NCBI GenBank assembly: GCA_964588985.1
Contig: CAZPQW010000001.1
Span: 32,001-96,000 of the forward strand
Length of the DNA: 64,000 nucleotides
Direction: 5' to 3'
DNA from: an uncultured Solirubrobacteraceae bacterium
GTDB taxonomy: Bacteria; Actinomycetota; Thermoleophilia; Solirubrobacterales; Solirubrobacteraceae
The position numbers were made by a program, and so were the translations under genes. The notes under the pieces were generated by a model. It searched no databases, was not told the DNA's origin, and saw nothing but the letters and a program-made list of their open reading frames with translations. Shown here one piece after another: positions 5,699 to 14,376 of this stretch (positions are counted from its first letter, which is position 1; each line of letters begins with the position of its first letter).

Positions 5699-6451
5699 CT
5701 ACGCCTGCGGTCTCGGTGAGGAGAGGTAGATTGCTCGTCCTGCTGCGCCCATGCCACACGGCTTCGGCGCGAACTCGGCTCTCAGACCATCTGGTACGCC
5801 ACGGATCTCGCCTCGGTTGTCAACGTCGAAGTTTTGTTGAAGACATCGAGTGAGCTGGGACAGGTAGGTGTCATATGCAAGCTGAGCAACTCTGTCGAGA
5901 TCATCGGGAACGAAACCAAGGCTCGCGCGGGGTGGAGGCACGGCGCCCGGTGGTCCGATCGTAACGCTTTCACTTGAATCCTCATCCATATCGACCGCAA
6001 TGAGCAGTGCGTGGGTATGAAGCTGGGGTGGTGGCTGATCAGCCTGCGGCAGGCGCGCAAATGAGTGAATAAATTGGGCCGCAATTGGAACGGCACCGAT
6101 CGCCACGCCGAGGTGAGCAAGTGCCATATCGACCGCCATCTGGTGCGCTTCGTCGATCGAGCTTTCGGACTCGGGATGGAGCACCCGTATGCTAGAGACG
6201 CTTACTGGTGCTGTGAATTGCAGCTCGACTACGGGGCCTAGCATCTCATTGGCTGCAACCAGATCGCCGATCCCGATCGGGCCATTGATCTTGAGTCCCA
6301 GCTCTGATGCGGCGGCCTGAGTCCCGAACCATCTCGATGGCGGCTCGATCGCGTGTTCATCTATCTCCACGAGTTCAAAGAGATACGAAGAGTCGACCGC
6401 GCTCGCTGCGCGCTGGCTGGATTTGCGGAAAGGGTTGAGCCTCAAGGCCAC
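5699..6451 (-). CDS. Stand-alone MobF/TrwC-like HUH relaxase domain (~250 aa)
   Basis: RWFGTQAAASELGL, LQFTAPVSVS, EAHQMAVDMAL, AAQFIHSFAR...PQLHTH and GEIRGVP match the TrwC motif order; GTG start inferred. Confidence 0.75.
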   Translation of the reverse strand: MALRLNPFRKSSQRAASAVDSSYLFELVEIDEHAIEPPSRWFGTQAAASELGLKINGPIGIGDLVAANEMLGPVVELQFTAPVSVSSIRVLHPESESSIDEAHQMAVDMALAHLGVAIGAVPIAAQFIHSFARLPQADQPPPQLHTHALLIAVDMDEDSSESVTIGPPGAVPPPRASLGFVPDDLDRVAQLAYDTYLSQLTRCLQQNFDVDNRGEIRGVPDGLRAEFAPKPCGMGAAGRAIYLSSPRPQA

Positions 6452-6494
6452 AACATCATAATGAGAGCTCGGTTGAGCGAGGGTGGTGCCGACG

Positions 6495-7934
6495 TCAGGC
6501 AACGACGCGCAGGTGTGAGCGCTTTGCCTTGTTGCCTTGCCGTTCCGCTCGTGCCGAGCGCCACTCGATATCGACCGGTCGCGGTCCGAAGCGCCGGAGA
6601 TCGTCGATTGCGAATGCGTAGTGCGCGTCGAGCATCTGCAGGCTCGTCCCGCACTCCTTCGCCACCGTCTGTGCGTCCTCTGCTCGAAGCCTGACGGAGA
6701 TGCCGCCGCGTCGCAGCGCGTAGGGGGTCGCGCCGAGGGTGTCGCGGAACTCAGGCTGCTCGGCGACCTTCGTGACGGCTGGGTTGAAGTAGTTCGGCCC
6801 CCACTTCTTCGCCTGGTTGCCGCTGAAGTGGCATGCGCCCGTGCGGGCGTCCTGGACGCCGTAATCAGCGCCGCCGAGATCGCCGGGGAAGATGAAGTCC
6901 ACATCGCGGGCTGGATGTCCCCAGCTGCGAAGCGCGTTGCGCCACTCCTCGAGATCTTCCACCGCGATGCTTGGGACGGCGGTTCGACGTTCGGTGCTGT
7001 GTTCGGTCTTGCCCCATTCGTCGAGCGCGCCCCAGGAGACGACCTCGACCACCTCCGCGTAGGACGCGTGGAGGGACATCCAGCGCATGCCCCAAACCTC
7101 CTGGTTGCGCGCGCCAAGCCCGTACTGCAGGCTCACGACCGCCGCGTCGCGCTGGGCAAAGATGGGGTCTCTGTCCTTGGATCGCAGGAGCATCTGTGCA
7201 CGGATCGCCTCGACCGCCCGCGGGGAGAGCGCCCAGCTCGGTATCTGCGATCCACGTCGGCGGCCCGCTGCTGCCGCGCCGGTGCCGCCTCGCCGGGAGG
7301 AGCGGCGTCTGCTGATAGTTCGCTCGTTGGCAAGGATGCACCCGTTGGTCTGGATCTCGGGCACGACGTGCGAGCCGGCGGCCCAGCTCAGAGCCGAGGA
7401 CAGCACGCTCCACGCCTGCTGACGCCTCGGCTGGGGCAGGTTCGCCTGAATCATCTGTTCGCGCCACGTCCGCGGCGCCTGCGGCTCGTTGAACATGGCG
7501 GCCGGCTGCGAGGCCAGCGCCACGGCGTATCGAGCCGGCGGGAGAGGCTCGCCCTTCGCGTTGTGCAGAGGCTTGCCGAGGATGTGGCAGTTAGCGGCCG
7601 ACGAGTACGCGGCGAACGTCGACGGCGCAAGACCCGCCTGGAGGCTCGGGTCGGCGTCCAACGCGAAGTAGAGCTCGACCACCTCTCCGATCGTGCGGGC
7701 GCTCGTCTCGTTGGCCTCCTTCGCGTCGAGATCCAGCAGGAACCTCCGCAGGCTGTCTACGCCCCGCCGCTCCGCCGTTATGTAGTCGTCCATCCAGACG
7801 CGGGCCTGTCGTGCCGAGGGGAAGTGCCGAGTCCGCTCCACCCGGTCGTGGTCGTAGAAGCCGACCGCGTAGGACTTGGCGCCGCGCTTGCCGACTCGCG
7901 GCCACGCCGAGGACTTCTTCCAAGGTCTACTCAT
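6495..7934 (-). CDS. Tyrosine integrase
   Basis: 479 aa; N-terminal arm-binding-like region, GARNQEVWGMRW, GKT, PYALRRG, CGTSLQMLDAHY. Confidence 0.9.
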   Translation of the reverse strand: MSRPWKKSSAWPRVGKRGAKSYAVGFYDHDRVERTRHFPSARQARVWMDDYITAERRGVDSLRRFLLDLDAKEANETSARTIGEVVELYFALDADPSLQAGLAPSTFAAYSSAANCHILGKPLHNAKGEPLPPARYAVALASQPAAMFNEPQAPRTWREQMIQANLPQPRRQQAWSVLSSALSWAAGSHVVPEIQTNGCILANERTISRRRSSRRGGTGAAAAGRRRGSQIPSWALSPRAVEAIRAQMLLRSKDRDPIFAQRDAAVVSLQYGLGARNQEVWGMRWMSLHASYAEVVEVVSWGALDEWGKTEHSTERRTAVPSIAVEDLEEWRNALRSWGHPARDVDFIFPGDLGGADYGVQDARTGACHFSGNQAKKWGPNYFNPAVTKVAEQPEFRDTLGATPYALRRGGISVRLRAEDAQTVAKECGTSLQMLDAHYAFAIDDLRRFGPRPVDIEWRSARAERQGNKAKRSHLRVVA

Positions 7935-8340
7935 CCGCTGCTCCCTCGATTGGTGTGGCGATCGCGGGAGGCGAGCCCGACGTGCGGTATTGAGCGCGCA
8001 GCTCCTCCAGACGCTCCGGCGAGAGGTCGTAGGCGACCGCCTCGCGCTTCAACGGAGGGCGACGGGCCTGTCCAGCGCGCCGCGTGCGTGGCGCTGGGTG
8101 TGCCCCGAGAGCCGTTCGGCGACGGTCGAGACCGGCGGTGTCGTTCTCGACCCAGAACTCGTCGATCGCCTCCAGCGGTATGCGGTAGTGCCCTCCTGGC
8201 AGGCGCCGATACCGGAGCCTGCCGATGGCGATGTAGCGACGCAGCGTGCGCTCGTGGACGCCGAGGGCGGCCGCCGCCTCGCCGGTGCTCAACACGCGAC
8301 GCGTGCCAGCACGTGCGCCGGAGTTGGAGGGTTTGCCCAT
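7927..8340 (-). CDS. Excisionase-like HTH DNA-binding protein
   Basis: LSTGEAAAALGVHERTLRRYIAIGRLRYRRLPGGHYRIP; overlaps the integrase start. Confidence 0.85.
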   Translation of the reverse strand: MGKPSNSGARAGTRRVLSTGEAAAALGVHERTLRRYIAIGRLRYRRLPGGHYRIPLEAIDEFWVENDTAGLDRRRTALGAHPAPRTRRAGQARRPPLKREAVAYDLSPERLEELRAQYRTSGSPPAIATPIEGAADE

Positions 8341-8460
8341 GCCCCATCCGTCTCGATGGCGGGCCCTTCTCCCCCAGACGAATGTTCTGGATGCGTGCTC
8401 GGCCGTGGGCCTCAGAGCCCGCGTTCTCGGGGCCTGACGCTTCTCAAAACAGCGCGAATC

Positions 8461-8482
8461 TGCGGTGCCGTTGCGGTGCCGT
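8461..8482. repeat. Tandem 11-bp repeat TGCGGTGCCGT x2, probable integrase arm-type sites
   Basis: Exact tandem copies ~60 bp from the att core; function inferred. Confidence 0.55.
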
Positions 8483-8543
8483 TCGCGATCCCCATGAGCA
8501 GAAATGCTTATTTGCAGGCAGAAAGCCCCCAAATGCCCCGTGT

Positions 8544-8648: not shown

Positions 8649-10031
8649 TTACGCCGCCGCCGTGTAGGGCGGCGGAGGATCTGTTCCAGGCTTGGTGTTC
8701 GCCACTGCGGTGAGCTGATTGGGTGCGCGGAGATCGAGAGCGACTACCGAGTACTCGTTGCCGCCGTGGAGTAGGCGCAGGATGTCGGCCACGGCCACGG
8801 TGCTGGCGATCACGCCGACGAACGCCGCACCGACCGTGACGTCCGCGAACTCGAGCAGCCCGCAGCGCGCCGCGGACTCCTCCATACCACCCTCGATCTG
8901 GCGGGTTATCTCACTCTCATAGGCAGGCGCGAGGGCGGGGCGAGCCTGCGGGGTCTCCTTGAAGGCGGTCGCGGGGGATTCGACCGACGGGAAGGTATGC
9001 ACGAGCATGTCCAGGTACTCGTGCGGCCCGGCACCGAGGCCGGCGTCTACGACGCGATCGAAGCCCGCGCCCTCGAGCTGGCGACGTGGGGTGACGTCGT
9101 CGAACCCGGCCAGTGCGTTGCGCGGTTCGTTGCGCGTGGGTACTGCATGGGCCTGCGGGTGGAAGCTCTCATCAAAGGCTCGCTCAACGATCCTGGTCCC
9201 CAACCCGACCTGTTCGAGCGCGGCCGCGACGACGCGTGTCTTGCGCGAGCCTATGTCGCCGAGTCCTACGAGCAGCTGGGTGGCGATGTTGCCTTTGATG
9301 ACGGTGTCGAAGTCCAGCAGGCCGAGTTCGACCTCGCTGGGGTTGGCGTACGGCAGCATCCCGAGTGTCCACGCGTTGGCCTGCCCGAGGTGGCCGAGAC
9401 CCAGCAGCCATAGAGCCGCCGGAAGGTATTCGAGCGTAGGGCCGGGCGGTGCGGATCGCCAATCGTGATCGGTGCGCCAGAGCGAGATGCCAACCTCTCG
9501 CCGGCCGGGCACCGGGTTACCCAGCGACTGCTGGAAGATCTCCGAGACCCCGAGAGCGCCGGCCAAGATGCCGGCCGGGACGATCGCGGGGCCGCTCAGC
9601 CGGCGGTCCGGTGACTCTACGACCCCGCCGGTCCAGCCACCCCACGTGCAGTACAGGAGGGGCTGACCGACGGGGTCGCGCGGGTTGCCGATCACCATCG
9701 TCGGGAGGTCTGACTGGAGCTGGTCGACGACGGTGCCGCCGTAGCGGTTCACGACAGCCGTCGCCGCGAGCCCATCGGTCCAGCCGGTCTGAAGGGAGGG
9801 GTCGGTGTCGAGGAGGACGCGCACGCCGCCGTGGAACGCGCGTCGCCCGACGTTCACGACGGTGGCAAGAGCGGCCTGAGCGGCGCGATCGTGCTCGAGG
9901 TCCGGACCGACGGCGATCTGCAGGACGAGTTGGCTGAGAAACCGTCCAGCCTCGGCCGGGTCTTTGGCTTTGCCCGCGTCGATCAGGAGCTTGCCGGTGC
10001 GATGGAGGTCGTCGGCAGAGCCCCAGCTCAT
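8649..10031 (-). CDS. bilD: E1-like (ThiF/MoeB) ubiquitin-like activating enzyme
   Basis: GLGHLGQ nucleotide-binding loop, LLDFD, RKTRVVA, RCG candidate catalytic Cys; last gene of a Ubl-E2-JAB-E1 operon. Confidence 0.85.
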   Translation of the reverse strand: MSWGSADDLHRTGKLLIDAGKAKDPAEAGRFLSQLVLQIAVGPDLEHDRAAQAALATVVNVGRRAFHGGVRVLLDTDPSLQTGWTDGLAATAVVNRYGGTVVDQLQSDLPTMVIGNPRDPVGQPLLYCTWGGWTGGVVESPDRRLSGPAIVPAGILAGALGVSEIFQQSLGNPVPGRREVGISLWRTDHDWRSAPPGPTLEYLPAALWLLGLGHLGQANAWTLGMLPYANPSEVELGLLDFDTVIKGNIATQLLVGLGDIGSRKTRVVAAALEQVGLGTRIVERAFDESFHPQAHAVPTRNEPRNALAGFDDVTPRRQLEGAGFDRVVDAGLGAGPHEYLDMLVHTFPSVESPATAFKETPQARPALAPAYESEITRQIEGGMEESAARCGLLEFADVTVGAAFVGVIASTVAVADILRLLHGGNEYSVVALDLRAPNQLTAVANTKPGTDPPPPYTAAA

Positions 10032-10528
10032 GCCCTTCTCCCTATCAAGAGGTGTCGCTCGGCCTGCCTGCCAGTCCACGTTTCCCAGCCCTCGCCGTCG
10101 TAGCGGTGGACCCCTACGGTCCGCGGCTTGGTGGCTCGCATGGCGAGGTGGGGCACGATGAGGGCGACGTGCCCGGCTTGGGCGAGCATCGGGTTGGCGG
10201 CGTCGATCGGGCTCTGGCGGACGCCGCCGCCCGGATGGGTATGGACGTCCCCGATCACGCGGCGGTGCTCGGCGTCGCAGATGTCCCACAGTTTGCTGTA
10301 GGCAAGGCCGTCGAAGCTGATGCCGCCGGTCAGGCAGTTGGGGTCGAGGTCGTCGAGGTAGACGACCCGCGTCACGGTGGTCGGATCGCCGTGGCGGTCG
10401 GCGAGCAGGAAGGCGCCAGACTCACGTCGTCCCTGTCCGCGGCGCCCAAGCTCGGCGATCATCGCGTCCCACGCACTGCGGCGCATGCGCAGGAGCGCGT
10501 CGCGACGCCTATATGCCCAGATAGTCAT
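10028..10528 (-). CDS. bilC: JAB/MPN metallo-isopeptidase (deubiquitinase-like)
   Basis: ESGAFLL plus HTHPGGGVRQSPID (HxH-x7-S-xx-D JAMM motif). Confidence 0.9.
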   Translation of the reverse strand: MTIWAYRRRDALLRMRRSAWDAMIAELGRRGQGRRESGAFLLADRHGDPTTVTRVVYLDDLDPNCLTGGISFDGLAYSKLWDICDAEHRRVIGDVHTHPGGGVRQSPIDAANPMLAQAGHVALIVPHLAMRATKPRTVGVHRYDGEGWETWTGRQAERHLLIGRRA

Positions 10529-10970
10529 CGGCGTTCAGGATGTTGTGGACGTTGCTGAGCACGAAGCTGATGTCGCGCGTGGGGTTCCACGCATCGTGGG
10601 GGTGCTTCTGAGCCCAGTCGGCGTGCGAGCCCAGGGCGATGCGGTCCCACGGGGCGTACATTGCAACGCCGTCGCCCCAGTCGGTACGGAACACGTGAGC
10701 GGCGCGATCGCCCTTGGGCCGATACGCCGGCGCGAGCGAGCAGCCCGCATCGTTATCCCAGAGGCTGCCGGTCGGCGCCGAGTGGGGGTAGCCGGCAACG
10801 TCGAGTCGCAACACGAACCCCTCGGGGCTCTTCGAGCGCGGCGCGGCCGAGATCACGAACGTGGCGTGAGGCCAAGTGAGCTCAATCAGTCGCCAGCGCC
10901 CGGCCTGTACTCCGGCCTGGAAGCGCGCCCCCTCGAGGTGGGTTCGCAGTGTGCGCTCGTCCGGCGTCAT
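10509..10970 (-). CDS. bilB: Prokaryotic E2-like protein
   Basis: LRLDVAGYPHSAPTG (E2 YPxxxP motif) and position between the Ubl and JAB genes. Confidence 0.75.
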   Translation of the reverse strand: MTPDERTLRTHLEGARFQAGVQAGRWRLIELTWPHATFVISAAPRSKSPEGFVLRLDVAGYPHSAPTGSLWDNDAGCSLAPAYRPKGDRAAHVFRTDWGDGVAMYAPWDRIALGSHADWAQKHPHDAWNPTRDISFVLSNVHNILNADDYLGI

Positions 10971-11435
10971 TCAACCCTCGAAACGCGAGCGCGGCAGCAG
11001 GTCCAGCGTGACCGAGCACTCCCCTGGCTTAGTCAGCGCCCCGACGTGGACGCCGGGATCCAGGAAATGGTCGGCACCAGGAACGGCGAGGACATGCTTG
11101 GCGGCCTGCTCTTTGGAGAAATTCGCGACCTCGGGGCCAAAGGCCCATTTCTCGACCGTCTTGATCGTGCGCGACGGCCCGAAGCTGCGCTCGTGGGTGC
11201 CGTTCCAGCGGACGATGACCTCGACGTGGCGACAACGGCCGCGATGGACGTGGTGGCGGTGGTGGATCCCGGCGACGTCAAGCGTGAGATCGAGATCGAT
11301 CTCCTCGTCGACCTCCTCGATCCAGATCCCGCCGTCAGGGTCGTTCTCGACGAGGAGCGTGCGGACCGAGGCGGTCTCCTCGACCTCGATTATCTCTGGG
11401 TCCTCGGCCTCAGTTGTGTGCAGAAAAAGCTCCAT
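10971..11435 (-). CDS. bilA: ISG15-like tandem ubiquitin-like protein
   Basis: 154 aa (size of two beta-grasp domains), TLDVAGIHHRHHVH, C-terminal ...PRSRFEG ending in Gly; first gene of the operon. Confidence 0.8.
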   Translation of the reverse strand: MELFLHTTEAEDPEIIEVEETASVRTLLVENDPDGGIWIEEVDEEIDLDLTLDVAGIHHRHHVHRGRCRHVEVIVRWNGTHERSFGPSRTIKTVEKWAFGPEVANFSKEQAAKHVLAVPGADHFLDPGVHVGALTKPGECSVTLDLLPRSRFEG

Positions 11436-11495: not shown

Positions 11496-11539
11496 TTTAC
11501 CCGGCGAGTGTATCAAAAGATCTTTACCCACGAGGTAAA
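11496..11539. promoter_or_regulatory. Putative operator in the AT-rich divergent promoter between bilA and the HigB-like gene
   Basis: TTTACC-N5-GGTAAA inverted repeat at 11523-11539 plus a TTTACC half-site at 11496-11501. Confidence 0.5.
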
Positions 11540-11559
11540 TGAAAAAGCATGGCACGAGT

Positions 11560-11874
11560 ATGGACTTGGGCTTCGACAGCGATGGCTTGGCGGCGTTGTG
11601 CAACGCTGAACGACTGATGGTCGAACGCTGGGGTCCAGAGATGGGGAGGACCATCGAGAAGCGGCTCCTCGACCTGGCGGCTGCCACAGCGGCGACGATC
11701 GAGCGCATCCCCACGGCCAGCACGACCCGCGGCCGGGACGGCCAGATGACGATCACGTTCAACGGAGCGATCGTGATCAGCGGTCAGCTCATGGCGTGCG
11801 CTGACGGGGCTCGCAAGGACACCGATCAGTTCGTGATCGCGACCGTGATCGTCGACGAGAATAGGCGCCCATGA
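11560..11874 (+). CDS. HigB/RelE-like toxin (degenerate)
   Basis: MDLGFDSDGLAALCN...RWGPEMGRTIEKRLLDLAAA; 4-nt overlap with the HigA-like gene. Confidence 0.65.
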   Translation: MDLGFDSDGLAALCNAERLMVERWGPEMGRTIEKRLLDLAAATAATIERIPTASTTRGRDGQMTITFNGAIVISGQLMACADGARKDTDQFVIATVIVDENRRP

Positions 11875-12947
11875 AGGATTCGAGTACACCAATCGCGTTC
11901 CGCCCGGACTACGCCATAGCGCCCGGGGAGACCCTGCGCGACGCGTTGGCAGAGCAGAGCCTCTCCCAAGCCGATCTCGCGGCACGTGCCAGCCTCTCCG
12001 CCAAGCACATCAACCAGATCCTGCAGGGCATCGCGCCGATCACTCTGGAGACCTCAATCGTGCTCGAGCGGGTCACCGGGATACCGGCGAGCTTCTGGAA
12101 CAGGCGTGAGGCCGACTACCGCGAGACGCTGCTACGCCAGAAACAGCGAACGCTCTCGGACGACGACAAGGAGTGGCTCAGTTCCCTTCCGATCAAGGAG
12201 CTGCAGAGCCGGGAGAAGATTCCCCGGGAGAAGGATCGAGGTCGGCTGTTTGAGGCTGTGCTGTCGTTCTTCGGCGTCGCTGATCGTCAGGCGTGGGAAC
12301 GCATCTGGCATGGACCGGTCGCGTCGTTCCGGCGTTCGCACGCATTTACCAGCCATCCGGGCGCGATCGCCTCGTGGCTGCGCATCGCACAGCTCGATGC
12401 CCAAAACGCAAAGGCCGAACCGTTCAACGCAAGCGCATTTCGAAGAGTCCTTCGAGAAATCCGCGCGCTTACCGCCGACGGTGATCCGAACCTGATCGTG
12501 GAGATGTGCGCGACCGTCGGCGTGGTGGTGGTCTTCGTACCCGAGGTCAAAGGTTGCCGTATCAGCGGAGCGGCCTGGTGGGCAACTCCAGCCCGCGCTG
12601 TGATCGCATTGAGCGACCGATACAAGAAGGACGACTTCTTCTGGTTCACCTTCTTTCATGAGGCCGCACACCTGCAGCTGCATTCCAAGAAGGAGACTTT
12701 CGTTGATGACGGCAAGGACAGCGACGTCACCGAGGATGAGGCAAACGGCTGGGCCCAGGACTTCCTGATCCCGCCAGAGCGAGCTCTAAAGCTGCGTACG
12801 CTGCGTACTGACGCGCACGTCGCGGCGTTCGCGCGCGAGATCGGTATCGCCCCCGGGATCGTCGTCGGGCGAATGCAGCACGACAAAATCTGGGACTACC
12901 GCCAAGGCCACCACCTCAAGCGCTCAATGTGCATCGTCGAGACCTAG
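11871..12947 (+). CDS. HigA-family HTH antitoxin fused to an ImmA/IrrE metallopeptidase
   Basis: PGETLRDAL...SQADLA HTH and FWFTFFHEAAH (HExxH), EDEANGWA. Confidence 0.9.
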   Translation: MKDSSTPIAFRPDYAIAPGETLRDALAEQSLSQADLAARASLSAKHINQILQGIAPITLETSIVLERVTGIPASFWNRREADYRETLLRQKQRTLSDDDKEWLSSLPIKELQSREKIPREKDRGRLFEAVLSFFGVADRQAWERIWHGPVASFRRSHAFTSHPGAIASWLRIAQLDAQNAKAEPFNASAFRRVLREIRALTADGDPNLIVEMCATVGVVVVFVPEVKGCRISGAAWWATPARAVIALSDRYKKDDFFWFTFFHEAAHLQLHSKKETFVDDGKDSDVTEDEANGWAQDFLIPPERALKLRTLRTDAHVAAFAREIGIAPGIVVGRMQHDKIWDYRQGHHLKRSMCIVET

Positions 12948-13104
12948 CACGCCTGCTCGTCGCACCGGATCAGCAACGCGGACCTAAGTCCCGTTGATTC
13001 TTGGCTATGGCGTCGCGGCTACGTCACCGCCAACACGCTACCTCCTGTCCCCATTTGGCCGCGCCGAGCGTGCTGAACTATGCGGTCGTTTGAGTAGCAC
13101 TCGT

Positions 13105-14376
13105 ATGGTGTCGGCAATGGCAGGCGCAAACGCCGCGTTCAGGACCGTCTTCGGCGAGGGTTTGACGCCGGACGCGATCGGCGCAGCGCTCGCGGACCCA
13201 GTTAGTGCTACTGAGCGCCTGATCGCCGCATGGCACCGCGAACGAGTGATGCCAAGCGCTCTTCCACCGCTCGCCGTCGGCGAGCTCCGGCCACTGCTCG
13301 GCCATGGCTTCAGCCCAAACTGGCGCTACGGGCTCAGCTGGGCGGAGTCCGAGCTCGACCGCTTGACGATCACGCTGACGTACGCACACCGCGCCGTGCT
13401 CATTGACCCGTTCAGCTACCTCGAGGACATCCTTCGGAGCGATGCGATGACCGCCAGTGTGCTGGCCGGCATCCTGCACATCGTGGCATTCGTCGAGCCG
13501 TTGACCGAAGCCTCGACCGTATTGATGGTCACTGAGCCTGAGCAGGTGACCCGGCTTGGCCGGACTGGGCCTTGGCCAGCTATGAGGCCCTCTGGCCTCG
13601 TGACCGACGTCCGGGCCAAGATCGTGCGTCGGATCGAGGATGCCTTGGGGGTGTTTGACAACCAGCCCAACGAAGCGAGGTGGTCGCGCGGCATTGAGGA
13701 CAACGCGGTCGGTCGCGACGCCACGATCCACCTCATAAGACAGACCAACGCGATGGCCGGCCGGGCGCACCTTCTGTTCGAGGAGACCCACGACTGGGAT
13801 TTTGGCTACGGCCAGAGCAGGACCTTCGAGCGCATGATGATGTACGCGCAGCTACGTGCGTTGGCGCGTGCTGCCGTTCGCCATCGCGGGGAGGTCGGCA
13901 AGGTCCTACTCCTGCTACGACGCCCCATCCCCGACATGGCTACGGTGACGCCCACCGATCTTCTCGCGCTCCGGAGCAGCGACGGGTTCGGGCAGGTCCG
14001 TCACCAGGTTGGAGATGCACTGGAGCGGTATGAGATCGGAGTACGGGCCGGTCGCGCGGATGTTGGCGACGGCCTCGCGGACGAGCTGCGCGCCAGCGCC
14101 GAGGCGCTCGACGCCGAAATCGCCGCCTCAAGCGCGTTGACCGCGATGCGGCGCGGTGTTGCTGCGCTGAGCATGACGGCCGCGGCGCAAGTCGCACTGG
14201 CTCTGACGGGCATTGGCGCCGCCACCCCCGTAGAGCTCGCCACCCCCGCCGCCGTCGGTGCTCTTGAGTATGTCCGCGCGCTTGTAGCGGCCAGTTATGA
14301 ACGCGACCGGAACCGGTCGCTCGAGGCGCACGCGACGACTGTGCGCGCGGTCGCCGAACGTATGGCGCTCCTCTGA
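13105..14376 (+). CDS. Hypothetical protein in the defence island
   Basis: Long ORF (~420 aa) with a hydrophobic Ala-rich C-terminal segment; no recognised motif; start uncertain. Confidence 0.6.
   Translation: MVSAMAGANAAFRTVFGEGLTPDAIGAALADPVSATERLIAAWHRERVMPSALPPLAVGELRPLLGHGFSPNWRYGLSWAESELDRLTITLTYAHRAVLIDPFSYLEDILRSDAMTASVLAGILHIVAFVEPLTEASTVLMVTEPEQVTRLGRTGPWPAMRPSGLVTDVRAKIVRRIEDALGVFDNQPNEARWSRGIEDNAVGRDATIHLIRQTNAMAGRAHLLFEETHDWDFGYGQSRTFERMMMYAQLRALARAAVRHRGEVGKVLLLLRRPIPDMATVTPTDLLALRSSDGFGQVRHQVGDALERYEIGVRAGRADVGDGLADELRASAEALDAEIAASSALTAMRRGVAALSMTAAAQVALALTGIGAATPVELATPAAVGALEYVRALVAASYERDRNRSLEAHATTVRAVAERMALL

Follow-up and report, generated by a model that had tools for sequence, protein, structure and literature searches.

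Bil operons, which encode a ubiquitin-like protein (Ubl; BilA), an E2-like protein (BilB), a JAB/JAMM peptidase (BilC) and an E1 (BilD), have been presented as the bacterial counterpart, and possibly the forerunner, of eukaryotic E1-E2 ubiquitination. According to the available text of the Millman et al. preprint, the Bil systems of Collimonas, Caulobacter, Cupriavidus, Paraburkholderia and Thiomonas were shown to defend, and the published mechanism, which runs through sequential E1 and E2 thioesters, is set out in a preprint that, in its accessible sections, calls the E2 cysteine highly conserved (Chambers et al.). Here, we describe a complete type I-like BilABCD operon in a stretch of 64,000 nucleotides from an uncultured Solirubrobacteraceae bacterium (assembly GCA_964588985.1, contig CAZPQW010000001.1, positions 32,001 to 96,000; the window, by which the whole stretch is meant), the BilB of which carries a tryptophan, Trp108, where an E2 catalytic cysteine would be expected. 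Comparative evidence, which reaches well beyond one actinobacterial clade, supports the reading that such a BilB may work without an E2 thioester. No description of a Cys-less type I BilB was found in the literature searched, with subscription-only versions and supplements outside view.

The translation of bilB contains GVAMYAPWDRIALGSH, and positions 10641-10658 of the minus strand read YAPWDR. A sequence-only reading of this DNA had reported just this motif with a TGG codon at residue 108, Cys77 in DAGCSL as the sole cysteine of the protein, a preserved RCG cysteine in the E1 and an intact JAB motif; translation and codon (10647-10649) agree with it, Cys390 of the E1 stands in ARCG, and E36, H96, H98, S106 and D109 of BilC are all present. 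It had also given LYxPCDR as the motif of homologous type I BilB proteins, and relatives do carry it. In a family alignment of the query and the 150 best cluster representatives of 415 phmmer hits (E<=1e-3, exhaustive search), Trp108 falls within the motif [LM]-Y-x-P-X-D-R...H, the flanking residues of which are nearly invariant (Y in 137, P in 124, D in 129, R in 132 and H in 133 of 151 rows), and X is cysteine in 36 of the 150 representatives. The features referred to in the following lie in the window at these positions:

bilA, 10971-11435, minus strand: Ubl of 154 amino acids (aa) with two tandem beta-grasp domains (PADLOC BilA 1.6e-38)
bilB, 10509-10970, minus strand: E2-like (UBC-fold) protein of 153 aa without an active-site Cys (PADLOC BilB 5.3e-56; PF24702 7.4e-44)
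bilC, 10028-10528, minus strand: JAB/JAMM peptidase of 166 aa (PADLOC BilC 1.3e-58)
bilD, 8649-10031, minus strand: E1 of 460 aa from the ATG at 10031 (PADLOC BilD 4.3e-142)
bilB codon 108, 10647-10649, minus strand: TGG (Trp) at the position assigned to the E2 catalytic Cys, motif Y105-A-P-W108-D109-R110...H116
bilB codon 77, 10740-10742, minus strand: TGC, the sole Cys of BilB, in a column with Cys in 12 of 104 rows
bilD codon of Cys390 (ARCG), 8862-8864, minus strand: the only conserved one of the two BilD Cys
HTH (XRE-type)-ImmA/IrrE fusion gene, 11871-12947, plus strand: divergent from the operon (Pfam HTH_3 2.3e-7, Peptidase_M78 7.6e-9)

The four minus-strand genes bilA-bilB-bilC-bilD are co-oriented and abut or overlap, the start of bilC overlapping the end of bilB by 20 nt and the ATG of bilD overlapping the stop codon of bilC as ATGA; the mechanical open reading frame (ORF) of bilD reaches 10289, but the hidden Markov model (HMM) match and the homologues start at ORF residue 87. 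BilB belongs to the Pfam family DUF7665 (PF24702, 7.4e-44), on which no literature was found, and BilC and BilD have sub-threshold Prok-JAB and ThiF matches only. BilA ends in ...RSRFEG with the stop codon next, and its AlphaFold2 (AF2) model (pLDDT 94.4) retrieves linear di-ubiquitin (1.8e-8) and ISG15 (3e-7) in Foldseek. The BilC motif E36...H96xH98x7S106xxD109 is intact, and BilD, with two cysteines in all, has kept Cys390.

That Trp108 occupies the place of the catalytic cysteine is argued from alignment and fold. Column 108 is the sole column of the family alignment with cysteine in all 36 Cys-type rows, the runner-up column reaching 15 of 36. The AF2 model of BilB (pLDDT 96.6) is a UBC/E2 domain, the top structural match of which is the BilB of Ensifer aridi (8TZ0/8TYZ; Foldseek 1.6e-4); the comparison with 8TZ0 gives VIA Z 11.7 and a root-mean-square deviation of 2.6 over 117 residues, while canonical E2s score about Z 10, and Mms2 (1j74) and UEV-1 (2a4d), which are UEVs and Cys-less, score Z 9.4. 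In the model Trp108 lies directly before a short helix (110-115) and after the four-stranded sheet, which is where we take the catalytic cysteine of the UBC fold to be located. In stand-alone Cys-type BilB proteins the aligned cysteine is residue 103-119, and in five proteins it is residue 113, which matches C113 of Collimonas BilB, the active site predicted in the available text of Hor et al. As the type II reference the BilB encoded on the plasmid of locus L059 was used in place of the E. aridi sequence; hhalign of the family profile against it, in global and greedy modes, sets Trp108 opposite the cysteine of the CEHH motif, a weak alignment (E 0.013-0.033, probability <=3.4%), and the default local alignment covers residues 3-97 only, stopping short of Trp108. 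Against the PDB, phmmer with the BilB and BilD sequences gave no match, and the family profile matched E. aridi BilB in the N-terminal half only (E 1.2). Three lines thus agree on Trp108 as the position of the E2 catalytic cysteine, the family alignment, the low-confidence type II profile alignment and the topology of the fold, as distinct from a residue-level superposition.

Among close homologues the tryptophan does not vary. A word-indexed search retrieved 103 homologues of 43-95% identity, which with the query make 104 rows, and position 108 is W in 104 of 104, next to Y105 in 104, D109 in 102 and R110 in 103; 47 of these BilB proteins contain no cysteine at all. The tryptophan of PWDR, a motif the conservation of which the sequence-only reading had proposed to examine, is thereby found in every close homologue collected. 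When one genome per species was scanned with patterns that include the W motif, which yields a locus set that shows breadth and context and not W frequency, 36 public genome loci were found, 28 from Actinomycetota (13 Acidimicrobiia, 7 Thermoleophilia, 6 Actinomycetes, 2 unclassed), 6 from Verrucomicrobiota, 1 from Acidobacteriota and 1 from a metagenome-assembled genome labelled Micrarchaeaceae. BilC and BilD are present in all 36 loci and BilA and BilB in 35, with W in 34 of the 35 BilB rows and Y in one (L026). The catalytic features of the partners are kept alongside: 33 of 35 BilA proteins terminate in Gly-stop (the exceptions being L028, which looks frame-broken, and L031, with a short tail), the E1 xCG cysteine is preserved in 30 of the 30 loci that cover the region (6 being truncated), the JAB residues E36, H96, H98, S106 and D109 in 33 to 37 of 37 rows, and the Gly-rich adenylation loop L210-GLGHLGQ and C390-G391 of BilD are invariant in 25 of 25 aligned rows. 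Truncated loci are few and result from contig ends or frame breaks.

Compared with five relatives by the Nei-Gojobori method, the window has a pairwise dN/dS of 0.12-0.31 in bilB and of 0.11-0.30 in bilA, bilC and bilD; the value of bilB equals that of its partner genes, and it is therefore maintained by purifying selection as they are. These comparisons show the Cys-less W state to be fixed in the lineage and under purifying selection. The carriers are sparse: of 401 genomes sampled in the phylum, only 2 have a BilB match, the window's own among them. The record of the Candidatus Micrarchaeaceae archaeon (L013) holds an actinobacterial-type W-form Bil operon on an 8.6-kb contig (BilB 53% identity), for which mis-binning seems as likely as horizontal transfer.

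In the wider family the site is far more variable. Among the 133 motif-covering representatives, C accounts for 35 (26%) at column 108, W and Y for 24 each, F for 20, L for 8, V for 7, I and M for 5 each, T for 2 and H, G and P for 1 each, so that 98 of 133 are Cys-less there; serine occurs in 0 of the 150 representatives. By rank bins 1-50, 51-100 and 101-150, cysteine is found in 7, 17 and 12 representatives. Of the residues one step away from the Cys codons, the aromatic ones are W, Y and F, and the others, S, R and G, are essentially absent; column 108 reads as a site selected for hydrophobicity and not for a replacement nucleophile. Residue 106 covaries with residue 108 (27 of 35 C rows have L or I at 106, 23 of 25 W rows have A or R, and most Y and F rows have H or A), and Y105, D109, R110 and H116 are nearly invariant throughout the family whatever stands at 108. 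A rapid maximum-likelihood tree, built from 108 full-length representatives after exclusion of the trait column, requires a minimum of 50 state changes at column 108 overall and of 16 for Cys.

Representatives of the C, Y, F, V and W types receive similar scores from the PADLOC BilB model (1e-46 to 1e-53), and annotation pipelines will therefore label all of them as BilB. A profile search of a library of 5.8 billion proteins, by a method that depends on shared words, returned mostly the same W clade. Eight members of the family (P0115, P0154, P0161, P0179, P0196, P0222, P0246 and P0252) are proteins of 314-355 aa with a C-terminal BilB domain; in the five of them tested the N-terminal half matches BilA, which makes these BilA-BilB fusions. 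At the active-site column the fusions show F, C or M, and they are reminiscent of the BubAB fusion found in Bub systems.

Cultured bacteria carry both states on plasmids. A tblastn search of 72,556 plasmids gave 30 records, 20 of which were analysed as a view of the residue types free of W-motif bias; the ten left out (H4, H5, H11, H19 and H23-H28) share identity and E-value with analysed ones. Thirteen of the 20 plasmid BilB proteins carry LY[LIVA][PA]CDR, their hosts being Sinorhizobium, Xanthomonas, Bradyrhizobium, Rhizobium, Variovorax, Roseovarius, Pseudohalocynthiibacter, Aminobacter and Cupriavidus. The other seven are without cysteine at the site: Mesorhizobium sp. AR02 and Paraburkholderia caffeinilytica have Y, Sphingorhabdus has L, Amnibacterium has A, and Rhizobium anhuiense, Rhizobium sp. 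N621 and Bradyrhizobium japonicum have W. The E1 xCG is kept in all 20 plasmid operons and BilA was recognised in 19. Of the two explanations that the sequence-only reading had offered for Trp108, a clade conjugating without an E2 thioester fits all that the sequences can reveal, in that BilB lacks a conserved cysteine while the E1 cysteine, the BilA glycine and the JAB residues are kept; the restriction to a single actinobacterial clade was too narrow, with 98 of 133 representatives Cys-less and proteobacterial plasmids among the carriers.

With respect to plasmid neighbourhoods, a UvrD-type helicase gene stands directly upstream of bilA in 12 of 19 annotated plasmid loci, ten of them Cys-type together with L044 (L-type) and L057 (W-type). 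Of the 7 Cys-less plasmid loci, 5 have HTH/XRE genes as neighbours, and a separate ImmA/IrrE gene is found at L043, L051 and L054 only. The UvrD versus HTH pattern of L039-L058 may simply reflect shared ancestry. Plasmid pRLN3 of Rhizobium leguminosarum harbours a Cys-type type I Bil (L042) and a type II (CEHH) Bil (L059) approximately 170 kb apart, the type II operon encoding a Ubl ending in GGGGA, an E2 with FVCM...E..H..H and a JAB protein.

The reading we favour, at a probability of roughly one half, is that BilB would be a non-covalent, UEV-like E2 scaffold and that BilA would pass from the E1 cysteine directly to the target. BilD would adenylate the C-terminal glycine of BilA and load BilA as a thioester on Cys390, the sole conserved thiol of the system; adenylation and cysteine loading of BilA by BilD are demonstrated for type II in the accessible part of the work of Chambers et al. 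The mobile Cys domain of BilD would then carry the thioester to BilB, as in the 'hand-off' state of 8TYZ, and BilB, unable to take over BilA as a thioester, would dock on BilD and on the target and present its conserved pocket (Y105, D109, R110, H116) to the E1~BilA thioester, which a target lysine held by BilB could attack directly. BilC would trim or recycle BilA. Such a cascade would have one covalent carrier, the E1, and not two, with BilB giving specificity and perhaps catalysis of aminolysis. Two published observations bear on this proposal: a Ubl~E2 thioester was undetectable even in the Cys-bearing Collimonas system (Hor et al., available preprint text), and Bil E2s have been proposed to recognise targets directly (Ye et al., in the sections open to view).

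Several points weigh against this proposal. To our knowledge, no Cys-less Bil system with demonstrated defence or conjugation exists. The equivalence of Trp108 with the catalytic cysteine rests on no residue-level superposition, and the type II profile alignment is weak. As the 150 representatives are the hits most similar to a W-type query, the share of Cys may be understated, and the other 265 of the 415 hits could hold more of it. The tree is weakly resolved, with 6 of 105 branches starred, which alone force 3 C and 2 W changes. Where the cysteine is present, it matters: C113A in Collimonas BilB abolishes defence, according to the available preprint text of Hor et al., and C138A in E. aridi BilB abolishes conjugates, according to that of Chambers et al., so that systems lacking it must be weaker or operate in another way. 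A bolder extension, which we hold to be possible but doubtful, is that the E2 thioester might be dispensable in most type I Bil systems; BilB would be a catalytic scaffold where the E1 Cys domain delivers BilA and a target lysine attacks the E1 thioester, cysteine at the site would be exchangeable with several other hydrophobic residues, and C113A of Collimonas would fail because of packing and not because of the loss of a nucleophile.

The Cys-less BilB could alternatively be a regulatory pseudo-enzyme, acting for instance as a brake or sensor that keeps BilD~BilA inactive until infection or as a receptor of BilA, in which case the output of the operon would not be BilB-assisted conjugation. 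Inactive UEV and RWD-type E2 folds commonly serve for binding, the BilB model reaches Z 9.4 with the UEVs Mms2 and UEV-1 and about Z 10 with active E2s, and ubiquitin-binding roles were proposed for inactive bacterial E2 folds in the accessible part of Iyer et al. (2006). Yet the pocket around residue 108 is as conserved as in the Cys-bearing members, which is more than simple binding seems to need, and gene order and translational coupling are the same as in Cys-type operons; we regard this explanation as unlikely. A covalent BilB that works through oxygen strikes us as improbable: BilA would be bound as an oxyester to Tyr105 or another hydroxyl, with help from D109 and H116, in the manner of Bub, which in the sections of Ye et al. 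open to view operates wholly via oxyesters with an E1 Tyr and an E2 Ser/His. Tyr105 is indeed found in 137 of 151 family rows and 104 of 104 close rows, with D109 and H116 nearly invariant beside it. The E1 cysteine is, however, kept here, unlike in the Bub E1, serine is absent from column 108 in all 150 representatives, and Y, D and H are equally conserved in the Cys-bearing members, where a thioester is expected, so that they need not form a separate nucleophile system; moreover, the location of Tyr105 at the active site is presumed and not placed by coordinates.

Decay of the W-type operons, or a sequencing error or strain-specific mutation behind Trp108, is a further account; a change from TGY to TGG takes a single base and Bil is rare (the 2 of 401 genomes above), and a one-base inactivating change or a singleton had indeed been considered when the site was first noticed. 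It is contradicted by W in 104 of 104 close rows and in 34 of 35 locus rows, by the intact operon in 36 loci from several phyla and by the dN/dS of 0.12-0.31 indicative of purifying selection, and we consider it very improbable. Hardly credible is a misalignment, with the catalytic cysteine at Cys77 or elsewhere. The query does possess this one cysteine, and the column of its position 58 is cysteine in 15 of the 36 representatives of Cys type and in 24 of the 101 of non-Cys type. The column of Cys77, however, which the sequence-only reading had named as the place that might overturn its view, has Cys in only 12 of 104 close rows, and there is no cysteine at all in 47 of 104 close rows and 25 of 101 non-Cys representatives; Cys-free members as numerous as these contradict a catalytic cysteine at another site.

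The genomic surroundings of the operon can be outlined as follows. The divergent HTH-ImmA/IrrE fusion gene is likely to encode a CapH/CapP-type regulator of the operon; according to the available texts of the Chambers preprint and Ye et al., CapH/CapP-type HTH and ImmA/IrrE regulators accompany many bacterial defence operons. An ORF of 111 aa (11539-11874, plus strand) overlaps the start of the fusion gene and one of 460 aa (12994-14376, plus strand) comes after it, both without a Pfam match at E<=0.1. Downstream of bilD follow an HTH_17/MerR excisionase-like ORF (7927-8532, minus strand), an ORF of 479 aa (6495-7934, minus strand) without a Pfam match, which by eye may be recombinase-like, and a TrwC relaxase fragment (frame 5699-7117, minus strand). 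The excisionase-like ORF and the relaxase fragment suggest that the operon resides on an integrative or conjugative, that is mobile, element.

Overall, the Cys-less type I BilB represents a new form of a system already described, and it stands a fair chance of altering the view of how type I Bil works. A large share of the BilB lineages is Cys-less while the other catalytic features of the operon are kept and selected, and either the E2 fold can promote Ubl transfer without covalent carriage or many annotated Bil systems differ in their action from the model system. Both outcomes bear on the evolution of the E2 step and on the reading of defence-system catalogues. Cultured carriers of Cys-less Bil are at hand in the plasmids of Mesorhizobium, Paraburkholderia, Sphingorhabdus and Rhizobium.

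Among the described systems, the type I Bil of Collimonas sp. OK412 (Millman et al., 2022; Hor et al., 2023/2024) has the same four genes in the same order, and all PADLOC Bil HMMs match in the window. The two further share a BilA with two beta-grasp domains and a terminal glycine, the catalytic cysteine of the E1 and an intact JAB motif, and the BilB motif LYxP-x-DR...H is common to the window and the Cys-bearing relatives that stand in for the Collimonas sequence. Collimonas BilB has C113, whereas the BilB of the window, aligned via the Cys-type relatives, has tryptophan at this residue and no conserved cysteine. The type II Bil of E. aridi TW10 (Chambers et al., 2023/2024; 8TYZ, 8TZ0), the top structural match, follows the same operon logic, but its E2 has a CEHH motif with C138, its single-domain Ubl needs trimming and its E1 contains a four-Cys zinc site. 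Correspondingly, PF14455 (type II CEHH E2) has no match in the BilB of the window at E<=0.01, and the CxxC/CxC pairs of the E2-binding zinc site of type II E1s are absent in 20 of 21 type I BilD proteins (the window and 20 plasmid loci), the exception being the BilD of L054 with CxxC at 138 and CxC at 405.

A bacterial Ubl system without an E2 thioester, and thus a precedent for non-thioester chemistry, is Bub (formerly 6E or DUF6527), as presented in the accessible sections of Ye et al. (2024), where the '6e' operons with Cys-less, RWD-like E2 folds, described in the part of Iyer et al. (2006) available, received this new name. Bub consists of Ubl-E2 and JAB-E1 fusions with a Tyr for the Cys of the E1, a Ser/His pair in the E2 and a DUF6527 protease, again by the text of Ye et al. 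that is open to view, whereas the window has separate genes and has kept the E1 Cys. The genome itself has one weak match to DUF6527 (PF20137; 25.1 bits, contig C4:126406-126513, L060), interrupted by two in-frame TGA codons, which might mark a broken Bub-type operon.

The UEVs (Mms2, Uev1A) and RWD-type inactive E2s have, like the BilB of the window, a UBC fold without a catalytic cysteine, although BilB gives no Pfam UEV or RWD match, DUF7665 being the only family found. UEVs act beside a separate active E2. The operon of the window, in contrast, has no second E2, and a search of the genome for the BilB type, as opposed to other E2 families, found no second gene of this kind (1 match). Archaeal SAMP/UbaA and Thermus TtuB/TtuC conjugate their Ubls with an E1 only and no E2 thioester, like the chemistry proposed here. 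These systems differ in having no E2-fold protein and in E1s without a mobile Cys domain, which for the archaeal E1s is also stated in the accessible part of a review. If the E2 thioester is truly dispensable, Bil would be a living intermediate between such E1-only conjugation and true E1-E2 cascades.

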